The notes below the pieces were generated by a model. The model worked only from the letters and a program-made list of their open reading frames with translations, was not told the DNA's origin and made no database searches. Positions 1,466 to 35,699 of a DNA stretch of 64,000 nt are shown piece after piece. The DNA lies in assembly GCA_038063415.1 (NCBI GenBank), contig JBBTVD010000006.1, positions 9,948-73,947 on the forward strand. Direction: 5' to 3'. This DNA is from Patescibacteria group bacterium. Its GTDB lineage: Bacteria > Patescibacteriota > Microgenomatia > Levybacterales > UBA12049. Both the position numbers and the translations under genes were made by a program. Each line of letters begins with the position of its first letter. The stretch's first letter is position 1.

Positions 1466-2971
1466 CTATGCTAAATTACTTGTCGATATTTCAACTTGCA
1501 GGACTTTAAAAAGCTGTACCATAGCGAGCGTATCAAGCTTACAATACTCGATTAGATCAGTCATAATCTGATTTTTTGTTTCTGCATTTTTTCCATCAAG
1601 TACCGTCTCCATCCAGAGCCGTTGCGCTGATGCTCCTTCCTGGATATTGAGTTCCTTATATGATAATTCCGATACCAGAACAGGCAATACTTTCTTGATT
1701 GATGCACTTCCATAAAAATCTTTATCAACAAACCAACCCTCAGCAAACGGAGTCATGAGATCAATTACTCTGTTATTTAGACTTTGCATAAAGTCCGCAT
1801 ACTCGGGAAACATTACACCAAGTTCTTTATTTCGACTCTTTTCAAATTTTTCGTACCATACAAGAACCGTTCCAGTCTCACCTATATCTTCTTTGAGTCT
1901 TTCGAGAAGAGGAAGGCCTGGATGAGTGTTTTCTGTATGCAGATACTCTTTGTGTTGTATAAGAGCATCAGGGCTTTCAATGATATGAAGTGAATATTGA
2001 AATGGAACTTGTTGATAGGGTCTAATGCCGTCAAAGGATGGAATGACGCTACTGAGTGTTTCGTAATCCAGGAAATAGAGAGGGTACTGGATATTCTTCA
2101 TAAATTCACTGATTTTTGTTTTCTCAATAAGACGCTGATTGGTCTTTGTCGCGTGCACTTGCCGTTTTTGTTTTTCTGAGAGGGCGATATGGTCTGGGAT
2201 GTCTTTAATGTGTGTAATCCCGAGATCTTCAAGCTCACCAACGAGCTGTGGTTTGAGTGTTGCAAGGTGATAAATGCTATGTGGATCAAGATCAGTATAG
2301 AGAGATTTATAAATGGCAAGCCATTCATCAATTGGTCCAAATCGAACAAAGCGAGGTGACATGCCTGGTGGAGTCTCTGATTGGATTGTTCTAATGGCTT
2401 GTTGGATATTTAGTTTTGTTTCATCAATGAGAAGCCTGACCGCCTCTGTGACATCAGTTGTCTTTGTTAGTGCTTTTGTATCAATTGGTCCTTTTCGTAC
2501 ATATTGATTATTAACATGGATGACACCGACATTTCTAATTGTTAACCCTGCGAGCTCAAGCACAACGACTTGAAACGCGAGATCATACTCATGATCTATC
2601 TTAACTGAGGTACTGGATTTTATTTCGTATAAATCAAACACATTGCCTTCAACTCTATCTAATACATCAAAAATACAAGTTATATTATCCGTCCCAACTC
2701 TTCCTTGCAAAATTGTTTTTGTACCATTTTCTATTGCATCAGTCGTTCGTTTTGGCAAAGTTATATATTCTTGATAACCATTAAATCCGAGAAGTGTACT
2801 ATTCGGAAACAATTTTTCGGCATATGTTTCAACCAAATGCCCATTATCAAACATAGCTTGCAATGCTTGATCTACTTCAGGGAGTTTGGCTTTATCATGC
2901 TTCTTAAGCCATAACCATGCAGGTTGTTTAAGAAACATCATATATTCTGATTTAGAAATAATCATTGTCAT
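1466..2971 (-). CDS. DUF2779-family protein with an N-terminal PD-(D/E)xK nuclease-like domain and a C-terminal DEDD-type 3'-5' exonuclease-like domain
   Basis: 501 aa. N-terminal DLYEIK (D..ExK) motif. C-terminal exonuclease-like motifs FLDYET (DxE) and YCKLDTLAM (Yx3D). Size and architecture are typical of DUF2779 proteins. Confidence 0.6.
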   Translation of the reverse strand: MTMIISKSEYMMFLKQPAWLWLKKHDKAKLPEVDQALQAMFDNGHLVETYAEKLFPNSTLLGFNGYQEYITLPKRTTDAIENGTKTILQGRVGTDNITCIFDVLDRVEGNVFDLYEIKSSTSVKIDHEYDLAFQVVVLELAGLTIRNVGVIHVNNQYVRKGPIDTKALTKTTDVTEAVRLLIDETKLNIQQAIRTIQSETPPGMSPRFVRFGPIDEWLAIYKSLYTDLDPHSIYHLATLKPQLVGELEDLGITHIKDIPDHIALSEKQKRQVHATKTNQRLIEKTKISEFMKNIQYPLYFLDYETLSSVIPSFDGIRPYQQVPFQYSLHIIESPDALIQHKEYLHTENTHPGLPLLERLKEDIGETGTVLVWYEKFEKSRNKELGVMFPEYADFMQSLNNRVIDLMTPFAEGWFVDKDFYGSASIKKVLPVLVSELSYKELNIQEGASAQRLWMETVLDGKNAETKNQIMTDLIEYCKLDTLAMVQLFKVLQVEISTSNLA

Positions 2972-3020
2972 TTTATTTTAACCTATATTATTGATGATAC
3001 TTCTATGACATAACTAAAGC

Positions 3021-4907
3021 TTATCGCCAATTATCTGTTAGAATAATCGTCTTATTTTTTGGTTCGTGTTTAAGTGGCTCAATTTTGCCTATATCAATAA
3101 CTACAGGAACATTTGCTAAAAGGCCTGCCAAAATACAAGTTCCTGTTGGTAAAATTGGCAAATACTCAAATGAGACTTTATCTAAATAAGAGATTGTTTG
3201 TTTTACGGCATTAATATCTTCATTGTTAATAAGTCGATGGAGAAAATAGTTATGTAATTGTGAGATAATCGTCGGTGAAATATCCGATGGTCTCTGGCTT
3301 GCAAGAGTAAGGAAGACTCCAAACTTTCGACCCTCTTTAATAATTTCTTCAAAGGTTTCCAGACGATAATCCTTCCATTGCTCACTTTCTCGTTCAGAGT
3401 TCTCTGAGAGAATATTGTGGGCTTCATCAATTATGATATTTAAATATTTTCGATCATCATTTTCTATCTTTTTGTCGTTGTACAATTTCTTGCACAAGAG
3501 TAAAGGAAGAATTTTCCTCATATGCATATTAACATCCTTTAACGACACAATAGTAATATTTTTCCTTCCATCAATTTCTTCAATCGTCCTAATTTCGATA
3601 ACTTTTTTTAGATCATCAATTCTTTTATCTAATCGTTTAATAAGAGGCGAAAGATGTTCCTTGTTAGAAAATCCTCGAATTATGTCATTATAGTATTGAA
3701 TTACAATTTGCAATCTTACTTCGTCTATAGGTGTAACTTGAGTAATATCAATCTGTAGTAGAGTGATTTTACTATCAATAAAATCTGTTCTAAAAGTAGC
3801 TTGATCACTAAAGGTTTTTATTCCGTTTTCTTGATAATAATACTTATTAACTCCGCTATGGAACTTAAGGTGTTCATTATAATCTTCCAAGAGTGTAGTA
3901 ATAGTTGCATTGCCACCTAGGCAGTCTATAAGTTCTTTTAGTAAATTGAAAATTATTGTTTTTTCAACGTTTCTATCACTCTCAGTCGTAGCTTCATATA
4001 TCATTTGTCCAATTAGATTTTTTAACTCAGCTTCTTCTCGTATTTTGGGAGCAAGATAGCTGTTATCTACTGAACGACGTAAAAAGGGCATTTGTGTTTT
4101 TTCGGTTGCTTCTAAAAATACCACCCAAAAATCTGAATCATTAAGGCTCTCTCTTGTAATCGGAAACTTATCTCCTCCAGTTGTGCGTGTGGAAAGCTGA
4201 TAAGTATTCTTATATTTTTTGTCTATAATGACATGATCTCGTCTGTTACCATTTACATATTCGCCATTAAAATCAATTAGAAAAAATTTAGCGTTTCTTT
4301 TGAATTTTCTTTTATCTTTATATTTCAAAAAAAGCTCACGATAAATTTTTGCGAGTGTATATGATTTACCACTACCTGTGTTACCAAAAATGCCGATATG
4401 GCTTGCCATAAGTCCATTAACTCCTACTCGTATCTCTTGACCTTTCTCAAATGATAATGTACCTATGGTTAAAGGATCGTCATTATCTCTTATAAAGTCG
4501 TGCACTTGTTCAAATTCTTTTTTATGAAGTAGAAAACATTCATTGTCGAGCAATGGAAGCTCCTTAATGCCACGTTCAAAATGCTTTCCTTTAAAAAAGC
4601 CCAGTAGGCTGAGACTTAAAACTCTATTAACTTTTTCTTTCTCATTACCATACCCTTGTTTTTTAATAAATTGCTTATCTTCATTTACAAACTCACCTTC
4701 AACCTTACCTATGATTATGGTAAATCCTTTTATGATTTTAATATAGCCGCCAACGGAAATATTTTTTAGAAGTTCGCCTTTATATACAAGATGTGAGGTG
4801 TTCTTTGTTTTATCCACCTTTACTTCTACTGTTCTACCTTTAACTGAGATGACTTTCCCAATTTTGAAAATAGAATCCTCAGATAATTGATCGTTTTTTA
4901 TAGGCAT
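3021..4907 (-). CDS. herA: HerA/FtsK-like ATPase (DUF87), the HerA partner of a SIR2-HerA defence pair
   Basis: 628 aa. Walker A GIFGNTGSGKSY, Walker B IIIDEAHN, sensor TLASQRPSDIS. N-terminal beta-barrel-like region. Starts 5 bp after the upstream SIR2 gene on the same strand. Confidence 0.8.
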   Translation of the reverse strand: MPIKNDQLSEDSIFKIGKVISVKGRTVEVKVDKTKNTSHLVYKGELLKNISVGGYIKIIKGFTIIIGKVEGEFVNEDKQFIKKQGYGNEKEKVNRVLSLSLLGFFKGKHFERGIKELPLLDNECFLLHKKEFEQVHDFIRDNDDPLTIGTLSFEKGQEIRVGVNGLMASHIGIFGNTGSGKSYTLAKIYRELFLKYKDKRKFKRNAKFFLIDFNGEYVNGNRRDHVIIDKKYKNTYQLSTRTTGGDKFPITRESLNDSDFWVVFLEATEKTQMPFLRRSVDNSYLAPKIREEAELKNLIGQMIYEATTESDRNVEKTIIFNLLKELIDCLGGNATITTLLEDYNEHLKFHSGVNKYYYQENGIKTFSDQATFRTDFIDSKITLLQIDITQVTPIDEVRLQIVIQYYNDIIRGFSNKEHLSPLIKRLDKRIDDLKKVIEIRTIEEIDGRKNITIVSLKDVNMHMRKILPLLLCKKLYNDKKIENDDRKYLNIIIDEAHNILSENSERESEQWKDYRLETFEEIIKEGRKFGVFLTLASQRPSDISPTIISQLHNYFLHRLINNEDINAVKQTISYLDKVSFEYLPILPTGTCILAGLLANVPVVIDIGKIEPLKHEPKNKTIILTDNWR

Positions 4908-4912
4908 ATATT

Positions 4913-6094
4913 TTACTCTTCTGCTTCAGGATTGTTGATTTTTTCTTCTGTTACAATATTCTCTACGTTTTCTTCTTCCAGTAAACATCCAAATATATTT
5001 TTATTGATTGTTGGAAAGTCATATTCGAATTTGTCAATTTTTGATCCGTCACCTGTTACTTCTTGTTCCGGGGCAATAATTTCAATATTATTATTTTTAA
5101 TATTATTCTTTCCAAATTTTTCTTCTATACCTATTTTTGCCTTTGAACTATGAGCAATAACATAAATCATAAGAGTAGGATTAGAATTAGCAGCTCTTAA
5201 CGTTATCTCTTTAAGATGCTCGTCTGCAAAGGAAAATCCCATTACAAAAAGAACAGTATTATCTTTTTCAAGTTCATTTGAGTATAAACGCAAGAGTTCA
5301 TAATATGTCTGGTTCATGAGTGTATGCTTGAATTTCTCCTTTGTAGGATTAACAACAATCAGCAGTTTTTCATAGGCTTCCATAAATGCGTCAGTAGAAG
5401 CATCAGTAGTTTTTCCGGTCGCAGCTGTTATTAGTTTTGCTATTGTCGCATCTTCAGGGATATCTATAATATGTGCCGGAGAAATTGTTTTGCTTGAAAC
5501 TTCTTTAACGTGTTTTAACTCACAAGAAAAGATAATATCATTTGGTGTAATTTCCCAAGATAATGATCCATGTAATTTTGAAAGGTTAAATACTGGAAGC
5601 TCTGCTGTATTATCATAATGTAAACTTTTCTTGAAATGCGATTTTTTAAAATTACTGAGGCTAAATTTGGGTTTAAATCGTCCATTAAAACCGTCGTTGT
5701 ATTCAAGATTAAGATCTTCCAAAGCTTTTTCTAAAAAAATATCAATATTTGTAGTAAAAAGGTTTACTTCTTTGCTGAGAAGGGTAACTTTGCGTTTAAG
5801 CAGAATAGAATTTAATATGTTGAGAAAATTACGATAGGTTTCTAGGACCTCTTGTGCAGTAACATCAGATTCAAGTATTTTTGGATTTTTAGAAATTACG
5901 TCATCAAAATATTTTTTATAAAGAGATGCTCGTATAAGTTTTTTTTTGCTAGCGCTCATATTTTGTTTTTCTTCAAGCTCCGTAAGTAATTTCTCAATAT
6001 TTCCGAGCGTTTTGAGATACGGCAAAGATAGACCTGATCCTATGAGAAAGTTTATATTACAATCTTGAATTATATTTTTAATTTTATCGTTCAT
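4913..6094 (-). CDS. SIR2-family (NAD-binding GxGxS) protein, the SIR2 partner of the SIR2-HerA pair
   Basis: 393 aa. N-terminal FLIGSGLS motif (SIR2 GAGxS-type dinucleotide-binding loop). Tightly coupled to the HerA-like gene downstream. Confidence 0.75.
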   Translation of the reverse strand: MNDKIKNIIQDCNINFLIGSGLSLPYLKTLGNIEKLLTELEEKQNMSASKKKLIRASLYKKYFDDVISKNPKILESDVTAQEVLETYRNFLNILNSILLKRKVTLLSKEVNLFTTNIDIFLEKALEDLNLEYNDGFNGRFKPKFSLSNFKKSHFKKSLHYDNTAELPVFNLSKLHGSLSWEITPNDIIFSCELKHVKEVSSKTISPAHIIDIPEDATIAKLITAATGKTTDASTDAFMEAYEKLLIVVNPTKEKFKHTLMNQTYYELLRLYSNELEKDNTVLFVMGFSFADEHLKEITLRAANSNPTLMIYVIAHSSKAKIGIEEKFGKNNIKNNNIEIIAPEQEVTGDGSKIDKFEYDFPTINKNIFGCLLEEENVENIVTEEKINNPEAEE

Positions 6095-6105: not shown

Positions 6106-6288
6106 CTATGTGCTCTTTATAAATTTTTCGATATCCTTTTTATGATATCTTCTTACTCTTTTAATCCCAATTTTCATCGCAATAAGAATGCCTTTTTTAT
6201 CCCAAGCTCTGAGTGTATTCGGATGTACTTTTAATATTTTTGCCGTTTCTTTGAGCGTTAATAATTCTTCCATATATAATGCGGTCAT
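6106..6288 (-). CDS. HTH_17 (MerR/excisionase-family) small DNA-binding protein
   Basis: 60 aa, LLTLKETAKILKVHPNTLRAWDKKGIL helix-turn-helix. A paralog lies at 24320-24508. Confidence 0.7.
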   Translation of the reverse strand: MTALYMEELLTLKETAKILKVHPNTLRAWDKKGILIAMKIGIKRVRRYHKKDIEKFIKST

Positions 6289-6401
6289 TCTACATCATTT
6301 TTCATTATATTACAATACATTACATAACAACTGAATACAAAAGACGATGAGAATAAGAATTAAAAATTATGCAGAGAGTAATAATTAATGAGGGTCTGTA
6401 T

Positions 6402-6605
6402 TTAAAAAAGTTCTGGTACCTTTACTTTCAAAGCTCGAGCCAGTTTATCCATCAACTTAATAGATGGTGACTTTCTGCCTTGTTCAATATGCCCCATATG
6501 TGTCCTGCTTATGCGTAACTTTTCGGCTAGTTCTTCTTGCGTATATCCTATTGCCTTTCTTAACTTTTGAATCTTTCTGCCTTGTTTTTCTGGTGTAGTA
6601 GCCAT
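6402..6605 (-). CDS. XRE-family HTH transcriptional regulator
   Basis: 67 aa, IGYTQEELAEKLRISRTHMGHIEQGRKSPS is a classic XRE HTH. A paralog lies at 24005-24217. Confidence 0.75.
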   Translation of the reverse strand: MATTPEKQGRKIQKLRKAIGYTQEELAEKLRISRTHMGHIEQGRKSPSIKLMDKLARALKVKVPELF

Positions 6606-6725
6606 ATGAACATTATCGATAGCTTTGAGTTCTCAATCCACTAGCTTAAAGCGAGCATTTAGCCTCAACTACTACTTGATTTTATCTTTTGTTTCATTTA
6701 TGATCAGGAAGAGCTTCGAAAGGAG

Positions 6726-7175
6726 GTGATTTATATGAAGAAATTCTTAAAATGGGGAGGAATTGCCCTTATTATTATAATCGTGCTTGCTGTTATTGGC
6801 GGTGGTGGTAAATCAAGTAATAGTACAAACTCCACGGGAAATAGTGGACAAGCACAAGAACAACCGAAAACGCCTGAGATGGTTACAGCACAACAAATTG
6901 CTGATGACTTTGATGGCAATCAAGTTACTGCTGAAAAGACATGGAATGGTAAATTTGTACAATTTACAGCTACTGTTTCAAATATAACTGATACAGGGCT
7001 TTCTTTTACTAATGTTGCTTCAAAGCAATTTTCAATGGCACAAATAAGCTGTAAGGTAAAAGATACACAACAGCTATTGTCGCTTAAAAACGGAGAATCA
7101 GTCACAGTCAATGGAGTTATTGGCAAACAAACAATTGGTGTTATCGATATGAGCGACTGTGAAGTTGTAAAGTAA
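6726..7175 (+). CDS. small membrane-anchored secreted protein (OB-fold/BOF-like)
   Basis: 149 aa. N-terminal signal-anchor MKKFLKWGGIALIIIIVLAVIGGGG. Strong RBS aaaggaggtgat 7 nt upstream. The same N-terminus and RBS context recur in the gene at 35077. Confidence 0.6.
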   Translation: MIYMKKFLKWGGIALIIIIVLAVIGGGGKSSNSTNSTGNSGQAQEQPKTPEMVTAQQIADDFDGNQVTAEKTWNGKFVQFTATVSNITDTGLSFTNVASKQFSMAQISCKVKDTQQLLSLKNGESVTVNGVIGKQTIGVIDMSDCEVVK

Positions 7176-7190
7176 GCTCATCTTTCTAAG

Positions 7191-7230
7191 ACATTTCGGG
7201 TTAGAGTGCCTATCCTCCGAAATGTTTTTA
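7191..7230 (+). terminator. rho-independent terminator after the 6726-7175 gene
   Basis: Inverted repeat acatttcgg...ccgaaatgt followed by a T-run. Confidence 0.5.
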
Positions 7231-7569
7231 GTTGTATTCATCTTCTCGATAAGAGAATAGTAAAAAAAGATATTAAGGCACCTGCAATCGGACCACTCAA
7301 AATTATTAATTTACCCTCTGGGGATGACGCATTGTAGAGTCCCACTATATAAGTATAAAAATTAAATATTTGTTCCTTGAAAATAAAAACTAAACTTAGA
7401 AAAGCAAAGAAGAAAATAGTTTTTTTATTTTCGTAAATAAAAACTACGGGACGAAGAATAATGTATTCTAAAAATAATTCAAAAAAATCTTCATGAGTTA
7501 AGCGATTATATCATGCTACATAAAGTGTATTAAAATATTTTTTCATATATATTCTGTCGTATTTTGCGT

Positions 7570-7606
7570 CTGGACTTCGAATGGCTTTAGCGGTATCGTC
7601 TGCCCT
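7570..7606. repeat. CTGGACTTC...CGGTAYC motif, copy 1 of 3, upstream of recombinase A
   Basis: ctggacttcgaatggctttagcggtatcgtctgccc. Related copies at 34781-34815 and 35700-35735. Confidence 0.4.
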
Positions 7607-7753
7607 GATGAAAAAAGAGGAAGACATAGAAAAAGCGCTGCATATTCTTCAGAAATGCGAAAAGTACTTTTATTGGTATCTTTTGAAACACGATAAAATT
7701 TATATCGAACGCTTCTTTATTCACACCAAGAAACTAAAAAGGATGGTGCAAAA

Positions 7754-9055
7754 ATGGAAAACAAAGTAAATAATCCAATTGTTGAATATTGTTTATATGC
7801 AAGAAAATCATCAGAAGATGACGAGCGTCAGGCAATGTCCATTGATTCCCAAATTAAAGAGATGAATGAGATGGCAGTAAAAGAAGGATTGTTTATTAAA
7901 GAAATCCGCAGAGAAAGTCACTCAGCAAAAATGTCAGGACAACGCCCGGTATTTATGAAAATCATAGAGGATCTTCGTTCAGGGCTCTTCTCAGGCATCC
8001 TCACATGGGCACCAGATCGCCTGAGTCGCAACGCAGGAGATTTAGGGATGCTTGTAGATCTTATGGATCAAGAGAGGCTTGTTCATATAAAAACTTTTAC
8101 TCAAGCATTTTCAAATACTCCTTCTGAAAAGTTTTTGCTCATGATTCTTTGCTCACAAGCTAAGCTAGAAAACGACCAGAAAGGCATAAATGTAAAACGA
8201 GGAATTCGTGCAAAATGCCAAATGGGCTGGAGACCAGGACCTCCTCCGATTGGATACTTTAATAGAGCATTTAATGGGATAAAAGATATTGTGATTGATC
8301 CAGAAAGAGCATCTTTTGTTACAGAAATGTTTGAACGGGTCGCAAAAAATGGAGATAGTGGCAGAACGATAAAGCGATGGCTTGATAGAGAAGGGATGAC
8401 AACAAGAGCAGGTAAAGGAGTAACGCTTAGCCAAATTTATATGATGCTAAAAAATCCTTTTTACTATGGAAAGTTTGAGTACCCTATTGGGGGTGGAAAT
8501 TGGTATGAAGGTAAACACACACCACTAGTTAGTAAAGAAACTTTTGATAAAGTGCAAAAACAGTTGATTACTTATCCAAAGTCAGCATGGGGTGGGAAAA
8601 TTATTGCCTTTAAAGGATTGTTTAAATGTGGAAACTGTGGCAGAAATATCGTAGGAGAAGAAAAATGGAGAAAACGGAAATGGGCAGAGCCAGTAAAACA
8701 TGTTTATTATCACTGCGCTCCTATCCTCAATCGTTGTACTGAGCCTTATATTAGTGAGGAAAAGTTGATAAAGCAGATTCTAAGATATATTAATTTTATG
8801 AACATTGCTCATCCAAAACACTTAAAATTAACAGAAACACTTAAATCAAGCATTTCTGCATATATGGCAATACGAGAAGAAGTTTTATATGAACAAGAAA
8901 TTAATCCTAATGATTCACCAATAAATGTAGTCGAATTTGCTGCGTATGTTTTCAGGAGTGGGTCAATAAGTGAAAAACGAGATTTAGTACTTGCGTTAGA
9001 TAGACAGCTTTATATTAAAAATCAATTTATTTCATCTTTAAATGAAAATACATAG
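7754..9055 (+). CDS. large serine recombinase (resolvase-domain integrase)
   Basis: 433 aa. N-terminal resolvase catalytic region YARKSSEDDERQAMSIDSQ with the catalytic Ser context. Later recombinase domain and zinc-ribbon cysteines (CGNCGR...HCAP). Strong paralog at 35728-37062. Confidence 0.85.
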   Translation: MENKVNNPIVEYCLYARKSSEDDERQAMSIDSQIKEMNEMAVKEGLFIKEIRRESHSAKMSGQRPVFMKIIEDLRSGLFSGILTWAPDRLSRNAGDLGMLVDLMDQERLVHIKTFTQAFSNTPSEKFLLMILCSQAKLENDQKGINVKRGIRAKCQMGWRPGPPPIGYFNRAFNGIKDIVIDPERASFVTEMFERVAKNGDSGRTIKRWLDREGMTTRAGKGVTLSQIYMMLKNPFYYGKFEYPIGGGNWYEGKHTPLVSKETFDKVQKQLITYPKSAWGGKIIAFKGLFKCGNCGRNIVGEEKWRKRKWAEPVKHVYYHCAPILNRCTEPYISEEKLIKQILRYINFMNIAHPKHLKLTETLKSSISAYMAIREEVLYEQEINPNDSPINVVEFAAYVFRSGSISEKRDLVLALDRQLYIKNQFISSLNENT

Positions 9056-20195: not shown

Positions 20196-21536
20196 ATGAA
20201 AAATATATCAATCCAAACAGTCGAAGTACCAATCAATGATTTAATCCCAGCTGATTACAATCCGCGCAAGCATGATGATATAGCAACAGAGCAACTCAAA
20301 CAAAGTATTACACGTTTCGGCCTTGTCGATCCAGTTATTGTCAACTCATCTCCAGATCGTAAGAACATTATTATTGGTGGGCACTTTAGATGGGAAGTAG
20401 CTAAAACACTTGAATATGAGACAGTCCCTGTAGTCTATGTCGATATTCCTGATCTTGAAAAAGAAAAGGAATTAAACCTTCGCCTCAATAAAAATACTGG
20501 TGAGTTTGATTGGGATCTACTCGCTAAATTTGATGAGTCATTTCTGACAGATGTTGGTTTCTCCAGTGGAGAACTTGATGGAATTTTTGATGTCGATGTA
20601 CCAGAAGAGTTTGACCTCGAAAAAGAACTTAAGAAATTAAATATCCAAAATATTAATACCCAAAAAGGTGATATATACGATTTGGACGGTAGCCGTCTTA
20701 TGTGTGGCGACTCAACAATAGAAGAAGACTTTCTAAAACTAATGAGTGGTGAGAAAGCGGACATGTGTATGACCGACCCACCATATATTTTGGACTACCT
20801 TCATGGCAAGAAAAAGCATGGCAAACCAATAACGGGCTTCGGTGCTAAAAGAGATAGAAGATATTTGGAAACAGACTCTCTCCCTCCTGATTTCACTGAA
20901 AAGTGGATGGGCAATATAAACAAGATTCAAAAAGAACATTTCAGCATTATTGTCTACGAAAACTGGAAAAACTTAAGGACTATCTGGGGTGAGATGGAAA
21001 AGTATTGGAAAGTGAAAAACATGATTGTCTGGCATCTGCCAAATAGACATCAGGGATTTTCAGCTAAATATAAATTCTTTTCCAAACATGATATCGCCAT
21101 GGTTGGTGCTTCTCCTGACAAAGATATTCCATTTAATCTCGAGGAGGAAATTGATGGACTCCAAGAAGAATATGAAACGGCTCTCTACGCCATCGCTGGA
21201 AAACCTCACTGGGAAGGCTACCAAAAAGGTAGGAAGAACCAACCAACTGATTTCATCGAATATGTGGCTTCAGACGAAAAACATTCCGGGCAAGGTGTGA
21301 TCTTTGGGACTAAACCAGTCGAGATTCTCATTCCCTATATAAAGATGCTCACAAAACGTGGAGATTTGGTTGTTGAGCCATTCTCGGGCAGTGGTAGCAC
21401 TCTCATTGCCTCGACCAAGATGAAGCGTCGTTGTTTCGGCATGGAAAAGTCTCCAGTATATGCGGAGGTCATCATCAAACGTTGGGAAAAGTTAACAGGC
21501 AAGAAACCCAAAAAAATATATGGACAAAACAATTGA
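20196..21536 (+). CDS. ParB-like nuclease domain fused to a DNA N6-adenine/N4-cytosine methyltransferase
   Basis: 446 aa. ParB N-terminal motifs (NPRKHD..., GGHFRWE). Methyltransferase motif IV DPPY (MTDPPYILDY) precedes motif I FSGSGST (beta-class order). Fusion typical of phages and plasmids. Confidence 0.8.
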   Translation: MKNISIQTVEVPINDLIPADYNPRKHDDIATEQLKQSITRFGLVDPVIVNSSPDRKNIIIGGHFRWEVAKTLEYETVPVVYVDIPDLEKEKELNLRLNKNTGEFDWDLLAKFDESFLTDVGFSSGELDGIFDVDVPEEFDLEKELKKLNIQNINTQKGDIYDLDGSRLMCGDSTIEEDFLKLMSGEKADMCMTDPPYILDYLHGKKKHGKPITGFGAKRDRRYLETDSLPPDFTEKWMGNINKIQKEHFSIIVYENWKNLRTIWGEMEKYWKVKNMIVWHLPNRHQGFSAKYKFFSKHDIAMVGASPDKDIPFNLEEEIDGLQEEYETALYAIAGKPHWEGYQKGRKNQPTDFIEYVASDEKHSGQGVIFGTKPVEILIPYIKMLTKRGDLVVEPFSGSGSTLIASTKMKRRCFGMEKSPVYAEVIIKRWEKLTGKKPKKIYGQNN

Positions 21537-21939
21537 AAAAAGACAGTCAAAAAATAAAGAACAATTGTTGGAGATATTAAAGAAGACTCCGATTGTTCAA
21601 ATCGCTTGCGAAAAAGCTGGAATTGGTCGAGCAACTTATTATCGTTGGAGAAAAGAAGATGCTGGATTTGCTCAGGTGAGCGATCAAGCACTTCTGGATG
21701 GAAACTTGCTTGTAAATGATATGGCAGAGAGCCAAATGATGAGTGCCATTAAAGACAAAAACATGACTGCTATCATATTTTGGCTTAAGCACCATCATCC
21801 TGCCTATGCAACCAAGATAGAAATCATGGCTTCAAATAAAAACCAAGACATAGTTCTTACCGACGAACAAAAAGAACTCTTAAACAAGGCATTAGAAATG
21901 GCGGCACTTATTCCGCCTCAAGAAAAAGATCATGAATGA
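21520..21939 (+). CDS. HTH protein, probably a terminase small subunit-like protein
   Basis: 139 aa. HTH IACEKAGIGRATYYRWRK. Overlaps the upstream gene and immediately precedes the large terminase. Confidence 0.5.
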   Translation: MDKTIEKRQSKNKEQLLEILKKTPIVQIACEKAGIGRATYYRWRKEDAGFAQVSDQALLDGNLLVNDMAESQMMSAIKDKNMTAIIFWLKHHHPAYATKIEIMASNKNQDIVLTDEQKELLNKALEMAALIPPQEKDHE

Positions 21940-23479
21940 ACAACAAAAGATAATTAAACAGATCCAAGAAAGTCCTGATTTTCGAAAAGCATTAACGCAG
22001 GAGAATTTTTATTGGTTCTTCACTACCTACTTTCCTCACTACATCACCTGTCCAACTGCTGATTTCCAAAAGGAAATCTTTAATCTTATCCAAAATGAGG
22101 AATTAGAAAAGATTTCTATTACCGCCTTTCGTGGCTCGGCTAAATCAACAATAGCAACCTTGGCACTACCTATCTGGGCAATGGTTGGTAAGCCAAGCAA
22201 GAAATATACCCTGCTTGTGAGTTTAACTCAGGGATTGGCAAAACAAATCCTTACCAATATAAAACAGGAACTTTCATCAAATGAACTGTTGATACGGGAT
22301 TTTGGACCATTCTCAGAAGTAGCCGATGAATGGCGATCCAATTCACTAGTGATCCCGCATTACAATGCTAGAGTTTCAGCTATATCTCAAAGCGAAAGAA
22401 TCAGAGGACTCAGGCATCGACAATACCGACCCGACCTTATTATCATCGATGATGTTGAGGACTTAGAATCAGTTAAGACGAGAGAAAGCAGAGATAATCT
22501 ATGGAACTGGTTTTCTGGTGAGATAAAGCCAATTGGAGATAGTGGCACTAGAATAATTACTGTAGGCAACCTGTTACATGAGGATTCGCTGATGATGCGA
22601 ATTAAGCAAAATATCCAAACAGGGGGAACGGGTGGTATTTATAAGGAATTTCCATTGTTAGACGATAACGGAAATATTGCTTGGCCTGGAAAGTTTCCAA
22701 CCATGGAACACATTGAAGCCAAAAGAAAAGAGATCGCTGATGAGTCAGCATGGTACCGAGAGTTCTTGTTAAAAATTATTGCTGACGAAGACCGAATTGT
22801 AAAAGGTTCTTGGATAAAATCCTACGACATTCTTCCTAGCTCTGATCGCTACCCAGCCAGACTTGTAGCAATTGGTGTTGACTTAGCTATTTCACTTTTG
22901 GAATGGGCGAACTTCACGGCCTTAGTTCCAGCGTATGTCGTGGGTTACGGTGACAATCTTCAAGTTTACATTTTGCCTTATATCTTAAACAAAAAATTAG
23001 ATTTCCCACAAACAATTCAGGCAATAAAAACACTGACCGAGCAACTTAAAGTAGGTTATAGACCATATCCTGTAGCTTACATAGAAAGTGTTGGCTATCA
23101 AAGTGCCGCAGCGCAACAACTGACAGTAGAACACGTACTTGCTGAGGAAGTGAGAATTCCACATATGGATAAGAGATCAAGACTATCCATAGTGTCTCCC
23201 CTTATTCAACAAGGGAAAGTATTTTTTCCAAGAACAGGTGCAGAAGTATTAATAGGTCAACTTGTAAATTTCGGTGTGGAGAAATACGATGATTTAGCGG
23301 ATGCTTTTACCTTGCTAATGGCAAAAGTCATAGAGTCAGACCGACCATCAAGCAGACGTAAACCGGGCGAAGTGTCTGCAACAGAACCTGATCCTCATCC
23401 TGGATTAACGTGGTCTTTGCAACACATGAATGATTTAGGATTTGATTTTGAACCAATTACACTTGATACGAAATTCTAA
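21932..23479 (+). CDS. terL: phage terminase large subunit
   Basis: 515 aa. Walker A-like AFRGSAKST, Walker B LIIIDDVED, C-terminal RNase-H-like nuclease region. Architecture of Terminase_6-type TerL. Confidence 0.8.
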   Translation: MNEQQKIIKQIQESPDFRKALTQENFYWFFTTYFPHYITCPTADFQKEIFNLIQNEELEKISITAFRGSAKSTIATLALPIWAMVGKPSKKYTLLVSLTQGLAKQILTNIKQELSSNELLIRDFGPFSEVADEWRSNSLVIPHYNARVSAISQSERIRGLRHRQYRPDLIIIDDVEDLESVKTRESRDNLWNWFSGEIKPIGDSGTRIITVGNLLHEDSLMMRIKQNIQTGGTGGIYKEFPLLDDNGNIAWPGKFPTMEHIEAKRKEIADESAWYREFLLKIIADEDRIVKGSWIKSYDILPSSDRYPARLVAIGVDLAISLLEWANFTALVPAYVVGYGDNLQVYILPYILNKKLDFPQTIQAIKTLTEQLKVGYRPYPVAYIESVGYQSAAAQQLTVEHVLAEEVRIPHMDKRSRLSIVSPLIQQGKVFFPRTGAEVLIGQLVNFGVEKYDDLADAFTLLMAKVIESDRPSSRRKPGEVSATEPDPHPGLTWSLQHMNDLGFDFEPITLDTKF

Positions 23480-23480
23480 A

Positions 23481-23894: not shown

Positions 23895-24004
23895 TCATAA
23901 GTTAATTGCTTAGTCCACCTTAGCATAAAATACCCCTGTATTCAAGGCTAAACTCTTAGTGTGGCTAAGTGGAGTAATGGTCAAGCGTTTTAGACAATAT
24001 ATAC

Positions 24005-24217
24005 ATGAGGAAAAACGCAACGCTTCCAAAAGCCATAGGGAAGAAAATCCAGAAGCGAAGAAAACAAATAGGGATTACTCAGGAGGAAGCCGCCGAAAGA
24101 GCAGGTATCAGCCGAGCCTATATGGGGTATATTGAACAAGGTAGACACGCTCCTTCTCTCGAAGTACTCCAAAAAGTAGCAAAAGCCCTCAAATCTTCCA
24201 TGAGTGACTTCGTTTAA
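24005..24217 (+). CDS. XRE-family HTH transcriptional regulator (paralog of 6402-6605)
   Basis: 70 aa, IGITQEEAAERAGISRAYMGYIEQGRHAPS. Confidence 0.75.
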   Translation: MRKNATLPKAIGKKIQKRRKQIGITQEEAAERAGISRAYMGYIEQGRHAPSLEVLQKVAKALKSSMSDFV

Positions 24218-24245: not shown

Positions 24246-24266
24246 GACCTTTTTGAGGTCTTTTTT
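24246..24266 (+). terminator. rho-independent terminator after the XRE gene
   Basis: gacct-ttttg-aggtc hairpin followed by tttttt. Confidence 0.5.
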
Positions 24267-24279
24267 CGTATAAAAATGG

Positions 24280-24308
24280 TTGAAAAAGCCTAGCTAACTC
24301 TATATAAT
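24280..24308 (+). promoter_or_regulatory. sigma70-type promoter (TTGAAA-N17-TATAAT) for the HTH_17/hsd operon
   Basis: ttgaaa at 24280-24285, 17-nt spacer, tataat at 24303-24308. Confidence 0.55.
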
Positions 24309-24319
24309 ATTGTTATCAA

Positions 24320-24508
24320 TTGGTAAGTAATGTTCATATGGAAAAACTACTAACAATCAAAGAGGCAGCTGAGATACTCAATGTCCACGCCAACACCCTA
24401 CGTTTGTGGGATAAAAAAGGCATTCTGGTAGCTGTGAGGATAGGAGAAAAGCGTACTAGACGTTATCGACAGTCAGATTTAGAAAAGTTTATTAGTCACA
24501 AGAAGTAA
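24320..24508 (+). CDS. HTH_17 (MerR/excisionase-family) DNA-binding protein (paralog of 6106-6288)
   Basis: 62 aa, LLTIKEAAEILNVHANTLRLWDKKGIL. True start may be the internal Met (MEKLL). Confidence 0.7.
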   Translation: MVSNVHMEKLLTIKEAAEILNVHANTLRLWDKKGILVAVRIGEKRTRRYRQSDLEKFISHKK

Positions 24509-24517: not shown

Positions 24518-26032
24518 ATGGCAAAAAATAATAAAACAGAATCATTCGAAAAAACACTCTTTAAAGCTGCTGACAAGCTCAGAAAGAATATGGACGCGGC
24601 TGAATATAAGCATATTGTGCTTGGTTTGATTTTTCTAAAGTTTATCTCTGACTCTTTCGAAGAAATGTATATAAAATTGTCGGAAGGTAAAGGTGACTAT
24701 TCTGGAGCAGATCCCGAAGATGCTGATGAATATCGTGCAGAGAACGTCTTTTTTGTGCCTCAATTAGCTAGGTGGTCATATCTCTACTCTCGGGCAAAGC
24801 AACCTACAATTGGAACTGATATTGACTCAGCGATGGAGGCAATTGAAAAAGAAAATCCCACACTAAAAGGAATTCTTCCAAAAGTTTATGCTCGTCCCAA
24901 TCTTGATAAGACTGCTTTAGGTGGACTTTTGGACTTAATAGGAAATATTGCTCTTGGCGATACGGCTTCGAAGACTAAAGATTTACTCGGAAAAGTCTAT
25001 GAGTACTTCTTGGGTGAATTCGCACTTGCTGAAGGCAAAAAAGGCGGGCAGTTTTATACTCCACGTAGTGTTGTTCAAATCCTAGTAGAAATGCTTGAGC
25101 CATATAAAGGTCGTGTTTTTGATCCATGCTGTGGTAGCGGTGGAATGTTTGTTATGAGTGAAAAATTCGTTCAGTCGCATCAAGGAAAAATTGATGATAT
25201 TTCAATTTATGGTCAAGAAAGCAACCAAACAACTTATCGACTATGTCGAATGAATCTTGCCATTCGTGGCATTGATGGCTCTCAGGTTAAATGGAACAAT
25301 GAGGGATCATTCCTTAATAATGCACACAAAGATCTTAAGGCAGATTTTGTCATTGCTAATCCACCTTTTAATGACAGTGATTGGAGCGGTGAGCTACTTC
25401 AAAATGATGCTAGATGGAAGCATGGCACCCCCCCAGCTGGAAATGCTAACTATGCTTGGATTCAACACTTCTTATATCATCTTAGTCCTACTGGTAAAGC
25501 AGGTTTCGTTTTATCTAAAGGCTCCTTAACTACTAAAACTAGTAACGAAGGTGAAATAAGAAAAAATCTTATTGAATCAGATTTAGTTGACTGCATTGTC
25601 AATCTCCCAGCCAAGCTATTTCTTAACACACAAATTCCAGCTTGTTTGTGGTTTATGAATCGCAATAAAACTCAGAAAAAAGGAGAGATACTTTTTATTG
25701 ATGCTCGTAACCTTGGGCATTTAATTAATAGAAGAACACTGGAGCTATCAAATGAAAATATCCAGCAAATTTCCCAGACATATCATGATTGGAAAAATGG
25801 TAATGACTACGCAGATAAAGCAGGGTTTTGTAAATCTTCAACGATAGAGGATGTCAAAAAATTAGATTATGTTTTAACACCAGGTCGATATGTAGGGCTA
25901 CCTGATGAAGATGAAGAAATCAACTTCGAAGAGAAATTAGGTCAACTACGATCAGCTTTAAATGATCAAATTAACGAAGAGAATATCCTGAATAAAGAAA
26001 TTCTAGATAAACTTACAAAAATTAAGATATGA
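24518..26032 (+). CDS. hsdM: Type I restriction-modification methyltransferase subunit
   Basis: 504 aa. [19 protein letters not shown] (AdoMet motif I), VIANPPFN (motif IV). Confidence 0.9.
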
Positions 26033-27198
26033 ATAGCAATTCTAATAATATTTGGAGAGAATATCGGCTTGAAGAAGTTGTAGAAACTTTTATTGATTAT
26101 CGTGGAAAAACTCCAACTAAAACCGCATTTGGAGTGCCTCTTGTTACTGCAAAAATAATAAAGAATGGACGCTTACTCCAACCAAATGAATTTATAGATG
26201 AGAATTATTACAAAACTTGGATGACACGCGGCTTCCCAGAAAAAAATGACGTCTTATTAACTACAGAGGCTCCGCTTGGTGAAGTAGCATTGTTAAACAA
26301 TCCTAAGGTTGCATTGGGACAGAGGGTAATTACGATTCGTGGAAAAAAAGGATTTTGTGACAGCATATTTTTAAAATACTATTTCCAAAGTCCATTAGGA
26401 CAAAACTCTCTTTTATCTAGAGCGCAAGGTAGTACCGTTGAAGGAATTAAAGCGGCTGAACTTAAAAAGATGAAGATTCTGATGCCAAATTATGAAACCC
26501 AAATTGAATTATCCAGAGTATTATTTGTGCTTGACCAAAAAATTGACGTTCTTCTTGAGCAAAACAAAACTCTTGAGGATCTAGCGGAAACATATTTTCT
26601 TAAATTATTTGAAGCAGTCTCAGGCGAGAATTCTGGAACACTTGGTGACTACATTGATTTAGATCCTAAAGAAAAAATTAATCGCAACGAAGAATATCGT
26701 TTTTTTGATATGAAGACACTTTCCGAAAACTCTATGTCCATTGCAAACGGGCTGTATCGTATCGTAAATTCGGCATCTTCATTTAGAAATCTTGATACTT
26801 TATTAGCCAAAATTACGCCATGTTTAGAAAATGGAAAAACTGGTTTTGTCATGAATTTGGAAGATAATGAAGTTGCAAGAGGCTCAACAGAGTTTATTGT
26901 AATGAGGTCAAAAGGTTTAGTTAGTCCATATTGGATTTATTGTCTTGCCAGAAGCAAGAATTTTAGAGATGAAGCAATACAATCAATGACGGGTACGTCA
27001 GGTAGGCAGAGGGTTCAAACCTCACAGCTAAAAAATATTAAGGTTAGTTTTAATAAGAGAGACATGGAATCATTCAATGAGATGTGTAAAGGATTTTTTA
27101 ATAAGGTTAAAGAAAATTCTTCTCAAGTGCGCACATTGATAACTCTTAGAAACTTATTATTACCTAAACTAATGAGTACAGAGATTAGATTAAATTAA
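26029..27198 (+). CDS. hsdS: Type I R-M specificity subunit
   Basis: 389 aa with two target-recognition-like halves separated by conserved repeats. 4-bp overlap with hsdM. Confidence 0.8.
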
Positions 27199-27204
27199 AT
27201 TAAT

Positions 27205-28050
27205 ATGGCAAATTTAAGTAGCGTTGATAAGGTTAAAATTGAAAGACTTTTCGGAATGGGAAGTGGTTATGTGTTGGATTTTTCTAACCGCTCACTTCAG
27301 GACTTTATTTTAACCTGCTGCAAAAAAGATATTTTTAATGATAGATATAATCAAGGGTCTGGGTCAAAAGCCAATCGGTTAAGAGCTTTTTGGGATGCCG
27401 AATTAGATAGTGTTGTTGGGAAAGTCTTAACTGAAATGTTGGAGTATTGGAGAACACAAAAAGCATATTCTGATACTGGTATTCCTAAGGGGGAAGAGAC
27501 ACTATACAAAGATTGTTTAGTTATCGCACAAAGATTATCTGGTAAGACTACTAAAACAGAAGTCACTGAGGAAGAATTTCTACAAAAAGAATATAAAATT
27601 ATTTCTGTATCTGCATTAAATATAGATGGAAATGTCGGCGATGTAGTTAAACAAAGAATCAAAGAAATTGATATATGTATGAAGGCAAAAGCACCCCTTG
27701 CCTCAATTTTTCTGGCGGGAAGCACCCTAGAAGGAATACTTTTAAGCACCGCTATTAGCAATCCAAAAGTTTTTAACCAGTCCACATCTGCACCTAAAGA
27801 TAAAGAAGGAAAGGTTTTAAAGTTGAATGAATGGAAATTAAGTCAGTTAATTGATGTCGCCTGCGAAATTGGCTATTTGGATTTAGATATTAAAAAATTT
27901 AGCCACTCACTGAGAGATTTTCGTAACTATATTCATCCTTATGAACAAGCTTTAGCTGGATTTAACCCAGATGATGATACTGCTCAGATATGCTGGCAGG
28001 TATTAAAGGCTGCCATATCAGATTTAGGCAAAAAACAAACAACACTATGA
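27205..28050 (+). CDS. hypothetical protein embedded between hsdS and hsdR (possible HEPN-like motif)
   Basis: 281 aa. C-terminal [13 protein letters not shown] loosely fits Rx4-6H(xY). Contains AQRLSGKTT, a possible degenerate P-loop. Position is analogous to prrC-type genes inserted in hsd loci. Stop overlaps the hsdR start (ATGA). Confidence 0.55.
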
Positions 28051-31000: not shown

Positions 31001-31238
31001 CCAAAGTGCAATGGAGGTTCTTGGTGATGCTCAACTTAGGGATTTATCAAGAGTACTTGTGCAGAGAGTTAAATCAAACACTTCAATTGATTGGACTATC
31101 AAAGAAAGTGTACAAGCCAAGTTAAGAGTGATTGTTCGTCGCACTTTACGACAATTTGGTTATCCACCAGATGCCCAATTACTTGCGACCGAAAATGTGT
31201 TGAAACAGGCTGAGCTGTTGGCCGATGATTGGAAATAA
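28047..31238 (+). CDS. hsdR: Type I restriction enzyme R subunit
   Basis: Start taken at the Met of [12 protein letters not shown]. Walker [13 protein letters not shown] box [10 protein letters not shown], helicase C-terminal motifs. Confidence 0.9.
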
Positions 31239-31247
31239 CAAAAATTT

Positions 31248-34010: not shown

Positions 34011-34012
34011 TC

Positions 34013-34768
34013 ATGTCCAAATACTACAATCCAAATCGCACAAGAAATCTATATAACGCAAACTCTTCAGAATTATTTCGTTTAAGTCGTTCTAAGATTG
34101 ATCTTTTCTTAAATTGTCCTCGTTGTTTTTACCTTGATCGTCGATTAGGAGTGGGTCAACCACCTGGATATCCATTTTCTCTCAATTCTGCTGTAGATAA
34201 GCTTCTAAAGAAAGAATTTGATACATACAGAGCCAATAAGACGTCACATCCATTAATGAAAACGTACGGTATCGATGCCGTTCCACTTGCTCATGAAAAA
34301 ATCGATGAATGGAGAGATTCATTGCGGGCAGGTATAACTTTCAAAATTAATGATGAAAATGTTGTCATAACTGGTGGCGTAGACGACGTGTGGGTAACTC
34401 CAGAAGGTGAATTCATCATTGTGGACTACAAAGCGACTTCTAAAGACGCTGAGGTAACGCTCGATGCAGACTGGCAAATCGGTTACAAACGGCAGATGGA
34501 GATATATCAGTGGTTATTCCGTCAAAACGGCTTTAAGGTTTCTCCTGTAGGTTACTTTGTGTATTGTAATGGCGATACCGACCCAGCGGCATTCGACGGG
34601 AAACTGGAGTTTGATATAAAAGTAATTCCTTATGAAGGCAATACCGATTGGGTTGAACGAACGATTTTAGATGCAATCAAATGCCTCAAGGCAGATGAAA
34701 TGCCTGATCCAGGCGAAGATTGCGATTTTTGCAAGTACCGTCAGGCCGTACGACAATTTGAGAAATAA
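34013..34768 (+). CDS. Cas4/RecB-like PD-(D/E)xK nuclease with cysteine pairs compatible with an Fe-S cluster
   Basis: 251 aa. GGVDDVW...EGEFIIVDYK (D/ExK), QMEIYQW (QxxxY motif), N-terminal CPRC and C-terminal CDFC. Starts 3 bp after the SMC-like gene. Confidence 0.75.
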   Translation: MSKYYNPNRTRNLYNANSSELFRLSRSKIDLFLNCPRCFYLDRRLGVGQPPGYPFSLNSAVDKLLKKEFDTYRANKTSHPLMKTYGIDAVPLAHEKIDEWRDSLRAGITFKINDENVVITGGVDDVWVTPEGEFIIVDYKATSKDAEVTLDADWQIGYKRQMEIYQWLFRQNGFKVSPVGYFVYCNGDTDPAAFDGKLEFDIKVIPYEGNTDWVERTILDAIKCLKADEMPDPGEDCDFCKYRQAVRQFEK

Positions 34769-35076: not shown

Positions 35077-35625
35077 ATGAAGAAATTACTTAAATGGGTA
35101 GGAATAGGATTTATCATCCTTATAGTAATCGGAGTTATTGGCAGTATGGGAAGTGACAGTAAAAAAGTAGGATCAACTACTGATACTACTCAAACTTCAA
35201 ATACAAAAGAGCAACCAACTCAGGAAACGTACAAAGTTGGTGATAAAGTCCAAATGTCAGATATTATCCTTACTGTAAATAAAGTAGAAACAGCCCAAGG
35301 AGGTCAGTACACAAAGCCATCTGAAGGTAATCAGTGGATTGATGTAAACATGACTCTTGAGAATACAGGATCAAGTCAGCAGTACATTACAACAATGGGT
35401 CAGATGTTCGTCATAGATGGCGAAAATAATCAGTACCAAGTTGCAGTAACTGGAAAAAGACTAGAAAATGCTGGTTCTTTAGGAATGGATGGTGCATTAA
35501 TTGCAAAAGCCAAGAAAACTGACTGGGTAGGATTTGAAGTACCAAAGACTGCAAAAGGTCTCAAGCTTCAGTACAACGCAAGTTTTTATAGTAATAAGAA
35601 AATATTGGTCGATCTTGGAATGTAA
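35077..35625 (+). CDS. DUF4352-like membrane-anchored secreted protein
   Basis: 182 aa. Signal-anchor MKKLLKWVGIGFIILIVIGVIG. DUF4352-type beta-rich domain (GDKVQM...NQWIDVNMTLENTG...FVIDGENNQY). RBS aaaaaggaggtgat. Paralogous context to 6726-7175. Confidence 0.7.
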   Translation: MKKLLKWVGIGFIILIVIGVIGSMGSDSKKVGSTTDTTQTSNTKEQPTQETYKVGDKVQMSDIILTVNKVETAQGGQYTKPSEGNQWIDVNMTLENTGSSQQYITTMGQMFVIDGENNQYQVAVTGKRLENAGSLGMDGALIAKAKKTDWVGFEVPKTAKGLKLQYNASFYSNKKILVDLGM

Positions 35626-35649
35626 TTATTACTATCTAAAGACGAAAAG

Positions 35650-35676
35650 TGCCTGAATAACATCGGGCATTTTTTG
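35650..35676 (+). terminator. rho-independent terminator
   Basis: tgcctga-ataaca-tcgggca stem (one G-U pair) followed by tttttt. Confidence 0.55.
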
Positions 35677-35699
35677 TGATGTTTTATAGTATTTTGAAG

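Follow-up and report, generated by a model that had tools for sequence, protein, structure and literature searches.

In enteropathogenic E. coli, the first open reading frame (ORF) of a Type I restriction-modification (R-M) and defence island encodes RptR, which represses its own promoter via direct repeats overlapping the -10 box; RptR and its site are conserved in many genomes, also ahead of modules other than R-M (PMC12255303). The C proteins of R-M systems are likewise small autoregulating helix-turn-helix (HTH) proteins, timing R-M expression after transfer. BldC of Streptomyces also acts on direct repeats, its cooperative multimers assembling head to tail on 9-bp units (PMC5859096). Here, we describe a 64-kb stretch of a Patescibacteria genome (the window) in which two unrelated defence operons, SIR2-HerA on the minus strand (copy A) and a Type I R-M system on the plus strand (copy B), are each headed by a small protein of the HTH_17 family, itself preceded by an XRE-family regulator. 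Both regulator pairs are embedded in two diverged mobile islands and not in a plain chromosomal defence island. The Patescibacteria, or candidate phyla radiation (CPR), have tiny genomes and an episymbiont lifestyle, and to our knowledge almost nothing has been established about how their immunity is regulated. Comparison of these loci with related ones makes it fairly probable, in our judgement, that HTH_17 represses its own cassette via phased TGKTA repeats and that XRE independently controls the backbone of the island.

A protein search returned 89 close relatives of HTH_17 (55-93% identity), all of CPR type wherever the source is named, and a genome scan located 80 HTH_17 loci, each in a different Patescibacteria genome (cited below by L numbers). 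We classed the downstream gene at 72 of them by Pfam, PADLOC and clustering. This gene almost always abuts HTH_17, the gap being typically 0-3 nt, and is related to R-M or defence in ~57 of the 72 loci (~80%), representing at least 12 types of system. Type III mod methylases are the most frequent (20 of 72 loci), ahead of DrmD-like SNF2 helicases (8), RhuM (7), HsdM (6), HsdR-like proteins (4), KilA-N (3) and MmeI (2); Bro-N, DrmE, an EcoRI methylase, an Eco57I-type methylase, a C5 methylase, AAA_13 and a GHKL ATPase occur once each. Ten loci carry ORFs without assignment, mostly small, and cargo outside defence comprises adh_short proteins (3 loci), a HAD hydrolase, a cation-efflux protein and a DUF4190 protein (one each). 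Two metagenome look-ups by exact protein add HTH_17 followed by Bro-N and a Type ISP enzyme in one case, and by MmeI, a DEAD helicase and T5orf172 in the other. Many unrelated defence operons thus begin with HTH_17: the analysis points to one protein of ~55 aa that, with a ~50-bp promoter/operator, stands first in a dozen or more kinds of R-M and defence operon from several CPR lineages. In the literature on HTH_17 with R-M, on Patescibacteria serine recombinases with R-M and on excisionase-type defence regulators, we found no description of the HTH_17 family or of these CPR islands.

The non-coding DNA upstream of HTH_17 is also conserved across Patescibacteria loci. The 55 unique loci give the consensus TTGaaa-N17-TGTATnnT-An-TGkTAtCAAw-TGkTArGTAA, whose most informative positions are TGKTA units repeated once per helical turn (at -10, 0 and +10). 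Of these, the first shares bases with the -10 box, and the predicted start site is covered by the others. In copy B, a near-consensus promoter is followed by two such units (Table), and the strict pair TG[GT]TA-N5-TG[GT]TA occurs a single time in the 64-kb window, at 24311; across the surveyed loci, it is ~300-fold denser upstream of HTH_17 than in the remainder of the same loci. Two subgroups (L081, L080, L076 and L063; L086, L091, L083 and L078) place a unit of the form ATTGGTA(A/G)GTG inside the spacer between the -35 and -10 boxes; as this spacer is not transcribed, the unit there would be a DNA element and not a signal in the 5' untranslated region. The operator variant also tracks the recognition-helix residue that follows NTLR: NTLR-Q-WD goes with CAAATGTTA and NTLR-L-WD with CAATTGGTA, a covariation that fits direct readout.

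Copy A has three tandem 10-bp units overlapping its TATAAT box (Table), and an alternative promoter, TTGTAA-17-TAGAAT, can be drawn at 6315-6287. A relaxed three-unit pattern, which we defined after viewing this site, has the site itself as its only match in the window. On a weaker reading, these units may be a divergent version of the family operator. An operator-like site at 56071, with three mismatches and in a host region, was judged to be a chance occurrence.

Most HTH_17 homologues are 55-57 aa long, and the ATG start of the L007 gene is not in frame with the TTG upstream of it; we conclude that both copies probably begin at internal ATGs, 24338 in B and 6273 in A. Both proteins clear the PF12728 (HTH_17) cut-off of 27 with scores of 47.5 (A) and 48.4 (B); the excisionase-family domain TIGR01764 (cut-off 28.8) is passed by B (36.1) and narrowly missed by A (24.1), and PHROG families annotated as excisionase match HTH_17. 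An AlphaFold2 (AF2) model with a mean predicted local distance difference test (pLDDT) of 91 shows a minimal winged helix-turn-helix (wHTH) of the order H-H-beta-beta-H that would occupy the whole 55-56-aa chain, with neither coiled coil nor effector domain. Its top fold matches in the PDB are the BldC-DNA complexes 6AMA and 6AMK (template modelling score, TM, 0.82; 32% identity); after these come MerR proteins lacking a sensor and mycobacteriophage Pukovnik Xis (4J2N, TM 0.76), and HiNmlR is also among the top matches. A sequence profile search of the PDB likewise puts BldC first. Among NCBIfam models, BldC, HspR and MAD1 all stay below threshold. An exhaustive profile search yielded 669 representatives at E <= 1e-10, some of them natural proteins with 2-8 tandem HTH_17 domains, such as one of 623 aa with eight (P0090-P0094 and others), an architecture that fits arrays on direct repeats. 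Fusions to defence enzymes were considered as further support and set aside: among the best 150 profile matches, the large proteins are PAS/GAF/histidine-kinase sensors, a class-I methyltransferase and a tail-fibre-like protein, with no R-M enzymes. The sensor fusions carry the HTH_17 domain N-terminally, ahead of their PAS/GAF/histidine-kinase parts.

BldC, the best PDB match by structure and sequence, is likewise a small stand-alone MerR-like wHTH protein lacking a dimerisation or effector domain. The HTH_17 copies nevertheless fall outside the curated BldC subfamily, scoring 28.3 and 27.1 bits against an NF033787 cut-off of 77. BldC is moreover a chromosomal developmental regulator with many targets, whereas HTH_17 opens mobile defence cassettes, and the BldC repeat measures 9 bp (AATTNNNNC) as opposed to the 10 bp predicted for HTH_17 (TGKTA...). 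In function, the closest parallels to the role proposed for HTH_17 are RptR and the C proteins. RptR itself is unrelated: a 79-aa protein forming a four-helix dimer on a palindrome with a TAGCTA core, described in Gammaproteobacteria and not in CPR. We dismissed homology to it, as its structure 9R2Z is absent among the PDB sequence and fold matches listed for the window regulators and the operator here is TGKTA; the B promoter holds a single TAGCTA, in the spacer at 24290-95. C proteins, dimers of XRE type, share a transcript with the nuclease gene, but here the gene adjacent to R-M is HTH_17. The window XRE resembles C.BclI (2B5A) at the general XRE level (E 9e-7). In contrast to C proteins, its homologues are tied to terL and the recombinase and not to R-M, and downstream of XRE-B come a terminator-like hairpin and a promoter of its own for HTH_17. 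Conserved palindromes of the GCTAA-N-TTAGC type, possible counterparts of C boxes, exist in the XRE promoters, though not ahead of the R-M genes. If our reading holds, HTH_17 would be a third, structurally distinct first-gene repressor, BldC-like and acting on direct repeats, beside the C proteins and RptR.

Other comparisons are more distant. MAD1 of MADS (NF047737), an HTH protein of ~49 aa, is the listed first component of a methylation-based defence operon, but copy A scores 24.1 bits against its cut-off of 80, copy B gives no match, and the genes downstream are SIR2-HerA and Type I R-M, not MADS. Excisionases such as Pukovnik Xis (4J2N), P2 Cox and RdfS belong to the same class of winged-helix fold, form oligomers on direct repeats and are encoded by integrative elements, and some of them repress promoters; their partners, however, are tyrosine recombinases and they bind att arms, whereas here we find a large serine recombinase, repeats at the gene's own promoter and coupling to cargo. 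An earlier note on this DNA had set the two regulators apart from BrxR/WYL and CapH-CapP. We agree, as both are bare HTH domains without a WYL domain in Pfam, and the annotated genes of both islands include no Pfam peptidase.

The same note had proposed that XRE and HTH_17 form a duplicated, reusable two-regulator control cassette. Its description of the locus is accurate: XRE precedes HTH_17 in the same order ahead of SIR2-HerA (minus) and Type I R-M (plus) with the ORFs where it had put them, the pairs are clear paralogs (XRE 54% identical, E 5e-24; HTH_17 63%, E 1e-27), and the terminator and the TTGAAA-N17-TATAAT promoter, which agrees with consensus at 11 of 12 positions, lie as described. 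Recent duplication is another matter. Each regulator copy has homologues in other genomes that are closer to it than the second window copy is (HTH_17 79-81%; XRE-B 100% to L013; XRE-A ~70% to L111, L112, L114 and L115), which indicates two related pairs on two diverged islands. As for the cassette, what recurs before unrelated defence systems is HTH_17 alone, with its own promoter and operator, and not the pair: of 81 surveyed HTH_17 genes, only 5 have an XRE homologue immediately before them in the same orientation (window A, window B, L013, L023 and L036, the last with HTH_17 cut by the contig end), and, scanning metagenomes from the XRE side, HTH_17 follows 6 of 37 close XRE homologues, the window pair included. 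The note had also suggested looking for inverted repeats as operators. Palindromes do stand before the XRE genes, but the HTH_17 promoters carry direct repeats, with no consistent XRE operator among them: an AGCTAAC half-site appears in B and L013 only and in none of A, L023 and L036. Its own alternative, that the pairs are remnants of prophage cI-type genes unrelated to the operons behind them, describes XRE well and SIR2-HerA by half, since homologous operons elsewhere have neither regulator.

The steady neighbours of XRE are terL, terS, a ParB-methylase and a large serine recombinase. An upstream block common to ~30 XRE genes, whatever gene comes next, is composed of TGCTAAC-N-TTAGCA, AGGCTAAA...GCTAAGTGG and a GA(C/T)AAT box 6 nt before the ATG; the block of XRE-A type also precedes the XRE homologues of L023, L109, L111, L112 and L115. 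Both XRE genes are without a Shine-Dalgarno sequence, which, with a -10-like box 6 nt before the ATG, suggests that their mRNAs are probably leaderless. The island regulator, SIR2 and hsdM genes are likewise without the strong AGGAGG sites found on nearby lipoprotein and SHOCT genes. On island 1, XRE-A and the lipoprotein-recombinase operon diverge from a shared intergenic region, and this is the XRE-A operator region. On island 2, a relic XRE-type operator, divergent from the DUF4352-recombinase operon and with no XRE ORF behind it (Table), suggests that XRE-B may control the integration module in trans. Because of its own palindromic operators and its steady terL, terS, ParB-methylase and recombinase neighbours, we infer XRE to be the island's own cI-like backbone repressor, self-controlled via palindromes and probably also governing the integration module. 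XRE would then be the mobile element's own control module and not a defence control, which corrects the original claim. An inverted repeat, CTAAGacatttcgggTTAG, at 7186-7204 between the lipoprotein gene and recombinase 1 has half-sites like those of the XRE operator, and is either an extra XRE site or due to chance.

HTH_17 is the first gene of a portable cargo cassette, usually one for defence, and has its own near-consensus sigma-70 promoter. We propose that its protein would bind the TGKTA repeats head to tail in the fashion of BldC and would, once bound, repress its own operon. A cassette entering a naive cell could thereby give a burst of expression followed by a buffered low level of potentially toxic enzymes. 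XRE would separately repress itself through the GCTAA-N-TTAGC-type palindromes and AGGCTAAA...GCTAAGTGG, and would probably also control the divergent or downstream lipoprotein-recombinase operon. The anatomy, conservation and predicted fold described above are shown in silico, by sequence analysis; binding and the direction of regulation we infer. Several points weigh against this reading. Repression is deduced solely from the position of the repeats; the covariation of residue and base is confounded by phylogeny, the variants also following clades; 24 of 84 upstream regions fail the motif at up to three substitutions; and copy A is without the canonical motif, its tandem-repeat interpretation having been made post hoc. 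In a Microgenomates subgroup, the motif part GGTAGGTAA, 8-12 nt before the ATG, might double as a weak ribosome-binding site. The AGCTAAC in the promoter spacer of B (24292) and L013 resembles an XRE half-site, so XRE input is possible there. Finally, HTH_17 also leads the adh_short, HAD and cation-efflux cargo, and related islands exist whose cargo operon begins with Fic-RadC and has no HTH_17.

Were XRE and HTH_17 an obligate two-regulator cassette over the defence operon, for instance with XRE as repressor and HTH_17 as a second tier, one would understand why the same order appears twice in the window and again in L013, L023, L036, L101 and L110, why the XRE-like half-site sits in the B and L013 promoter spacers, and why pair A has no predicted terminator between its genes, which makes read-through from XRE possible. 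We nonetheless hold such joint control to be very unlikely: ~94% of HTH_17 loci have no XRE, few of the close XRE homologues have HTH_17 next (6/37), and each gene has a separate conserved promoter/operator. Homology to L038 also breaks at precisely the stop codon of XRE, no XRE-type motif occurs in the HTH_17 promoters of window A, L023 or L036, and an XRE-type operator fronts the recombinase module instead. Equally improbable, in our estimation, is that the conserved upstream DNA is just a strong promoter and translation leader kept by common descent, HTH_17 acting elsewhere or having no role in the cassette. Relatedness by itself can preserve non-coding similarity without selection, the motif overlaps the -10 box, and GGTAGGTAA offers a possible weak Shine-Dalgarno sequence in one subgroup. 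Yet the conservation spans HTH_17 proteins just 55-80% identical and with unrelated flanks, the unit shifts into the non-transcribed -35/-10 spacer in two subgroups, and neither the 10-bp phasing of TGKTA nor the covariation of residue and base is expected of a mere leader.

A role for HTH_17 mainly as the excisionase or directionality factor of the large serine recombinase, perhaps bifunctional like P2 Cox and with the defence genes riding along, has more to recommend it, although we still consider it unlikely. Besides the TIGR01764 and PHROG excisionase matches and the likeness to Pukovnik Xis (TM 0.76), among the 56 loci whose upstream flank reaches 8 kb or more, 36 have a divergent large serine recombinase upstream, usually 1-7.5 kb away, and in L039 and L044 it immediately adjoins HTH_17; the non-defence cargo of such islands is HTH_17-led too. 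Operator-like tandem repeats, TGGTAAGTAATGGTAAGT, occur in the recombinase promoters of L086 (6900-6950) and L091 (3735-3785), both from Saccharibacteria, with similar sequences in L078, L041 and L050-L052; the Saccharibacteria repeats hint that HTH_17 may also regulate integration or excision there. Set against this, both window recombinase promoters are without such repeats, and among the 39 loci flanked on both sides by 8 kb or more, 12 have no recombinase within reach. The conserved motif lies in the promoter of HTH_17 itself and marks no identifiable att site (a search for att repeats found none), and the tight coupling (0-3 nt) is with the cargo gene and not with the recombinase. The directionality factors of large serine integrases, besides, usually contact the integrase and not DNA. 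Self-repression of the cassette by HTH_17, with XRE acting apart on the backbone, remains the reading that we prefer.

How the two regulators came to stand side by side is illustrated by related islands. L013 is 85% identical to window 21557-24510, from terS through the last codon of HTH_17; its cargo then differs (a DrmD-like SNF2 helicase, Type III M and R genes and a UvrD-like helicase), and identity returns at the PD-(D/E)XK gene, at window 34013. Homology between L038 and the window stops at the XRE-B stop codon, 24217, and in L038 and L104 DUF4352 and/or the recombinase comes directly after XRE. Four loci (L038, L060, L095 and L104) combine an XRE followed by DUF4352/recombinase or by the contig end with an HTH_17 cassette divergent from the ParB-methylase, and L105 has the arrangement of island 1 (recombinase, lipoprotein, divergent XRE) without any cassette. 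These comparisons indicate that HTH_17-led cassettes sit in at least two alternative slots, 3' of XRE or divergent from the ParB-methylase, and the first of these explains the adjacency that looked like a pair. Close homologues of SIR2-HerA (71-80% identical) occur in three other contexts with neither HTH_17 nor this XRE, from which it follows that the regulator belongs to the island slot and not to the defence system. DUF2779 is again the last gene in the HTH_17-led cassettes of L026, L027 and L029.

A PD-(D/E)XK/Cas4-like nuclease or a DUF2779 protein recurs more widely as the final cassette gene, in the window (34013-34768 and 1466-2971) as in L016, L033, L084, L026/27/29 and L183, and this terminal Cas4-like gene, which may be either a part of the defence system or a cassette 'tail', marks the 3' point where homology returns after a swap of cargo. 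One could go further and see HTH_17 as a bifunctional Cox/Xis-like switch of an undescribed family of capsid-less CPR islands that have a terminase and a serine recombinase and resemble phage satellites; the switch would repress its cargo operon and also steer either recombinase expression or the direction of recombination, with HTH_17 and its operator (5') and the Cas4-like gene (3') serving as homology arms for integron-like swaps of whole immunity cassettes between two fixed slots; we think this decidedly doubtful. Should our preferred reading be correct, HTH_17 would be a simple genomic marker downstream of which to look for new CPR defence cargo, and would expose a modular family of islands exchanging defence cassettes between fixed slots. 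The findings would amount to a coherent, testable regulatory and modular principle for CPR immunity, with clear conceptual precedents.

A Parcubacteria island in L186 (JAKJDT010000003.1, 1-14000) has a backbone of the kind seen in the window islands, with ParB, a Dam-type methylase and terS-like and terL-like genes. Its divergent cargo runs from Fic-RadC to Type III R-M, SIR2-HerA and PDDEXK with no HTH_17, and its promoter region contains an imperfect direct repeat of ~55 bp.

Window positions 1-37320 hold the two diverged serine-recombinase islands in tandem beside tRNA-Gln (Table). Their recombinases share 71.6% DNA identity and each has a small lipoprotein gene ahead of it; the window SIR2 is 100% identical to a protein of a metagenome-assembled genome named 'Patescibacteria group bacterium'. 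The backbone (ParB-N6 methylase, terS, terL, XRE, lipoprotein, recombinase) is also present in L013, L023, L036, L038, L040, L060, L068, L082, L090, L095, L101, L103, L104 and L110. A PHROGs scan of the island matched the terminase subunits and neither portal nor capsid, and the island family looks like satellite-like elements carrying defence cargo. We discarded a phage origin, given just 9 relatives in 2.9 million IMG/VR contigs and the same PHROGs result. A search for att sites or tRNA-Gln repeats bounding the islands returned only chance 11-16-mers.

Table. Positions in the window of the two regulator pairs, their predicted control regions, the cargo and the island modules.
Feature	Position	Strand	Details
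HTH_17-B promoter and predicted operator	24280..24330	plus	-35 TTGAAA 24280-85, N17, -10 TATAAT 24303-08; 11/12 consensus positions
Copy B direct repeats	TGTTA 24311-15, TGGTA 24321-25	plus	10 bp apart; start 2 bp past the -10 box; over the predicted transcription start
Terminator-like hairpin	24246..24266	plus	GACCTTTTTGAGGTC + T-run, by scan at 24246-24260; 3' of XRE-B; parts the XRE unit from the HTH_17 cassette
HTH_17-A promoter region	6300..6340	minus	tandem 10-bp units TGTTATGTAA, TGTATTGTAA, TATAATGAAA (6329-6300) overlapping TATAAT 6309-6304
XRE-B promoter/putative operator	23907..23998	plus	TGCTTAG-N6-TTAGCA 23907-25; AGGCTAAActcTTAGtgtgGCTAAGTGG 23945-72; -10-like GACAAT 23993-98, 6 nt before ATG
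XRE-A promoter/putative operator	6612..6665	minus	AGGCTAAATGCTCGCTTTAAGCTAGTGG 6665-6638; -10-like GATAAT 6617-6612, 6 nt before ATG
Relic XRE-type operator	35055-35027	minus	AGGCTAAATGCTTAGTCTAGCTTAGCAAG; divergent from DUF4352-recombinase operon; no XRE ORF behind
XRE-A	6605..6402	minus	67 aa; Pfam HTH_3 56.8 bits; divergent from island 1 lipoprotein-recombinase operon
HTH_17-A	longest ORF 6288..6106, probable 6273..6106	minus	55 aa from ATG 6273; Pfam HTH_17 47.5 bits; first gene of SIR2-HerA cassette
SIR2	6094..4913	minus	PADLOC 2.9e-63; 11 nt past HTH_17-A
HerA	4907..3021	minus	PADLOC 4e-175
DUF2779/Cas4-like protein	2971..1466	minus	Pfam; last cargo gene of cassette A
Cassette A cargo overall	1466..6094	minus	SIR2, HerA, DUF2779; Pfam + PADLOC
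XRE-B	24005..24217	plus	70 aa; Pfam HTH_3 59.7 bits; 100% identical to L013 XRE
HTH_17-B	longest ORF 24320..24508 (TTG), probable 24338..24508 (ATG)	plus	56 aa; Pfam HTH_17 48.4 bits; heads Type I R-M cassette
hsdM	24518..26032	plus	Pfam; gap to HTH_17-B 9 nt
Cassette B cargo	24518..34768	plus	hsdM, hsdS, 281-aa uncharacterised ORF, hsdR, SMC-like AAA_23 ATPase, PD-(D/E)XK/Cas4-like nuclease; Pfam + PADLOC
Island 1 integration module	6726..9055	plus	tRNA_anti-like lipoprotein 6726-7175; large serine recombinase 7754-9055 (Pfam Resolvase, Recombinase, Zn_ribbon_recom)
Island 2 integration module	35077..37062	plus	DUF4352 lipoprotein; large serine recombinase 35728-37062; homologous and syntenic with L038
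tRNA-Gln	37244-37317	minus	adjoins island 2 recombinase
Island backbone	20196..23479	plus	ParB-N6 methylase, small terminase, large terminase; Pfam + PHROGs

Between 9057 and 19953, the window contains more candidate defence genes with no HTH_17 leader. They include an SF1 helicase of 1522 aa whose C-terminus bears a topoisomerase-type zinc ribbon, a second SIR2_2 protein (13789-14775) and a DUF4209 protein, together with several ORFs without a family match, of which one of 558 aa, at 18277-19953, is kept in L023 and L038.

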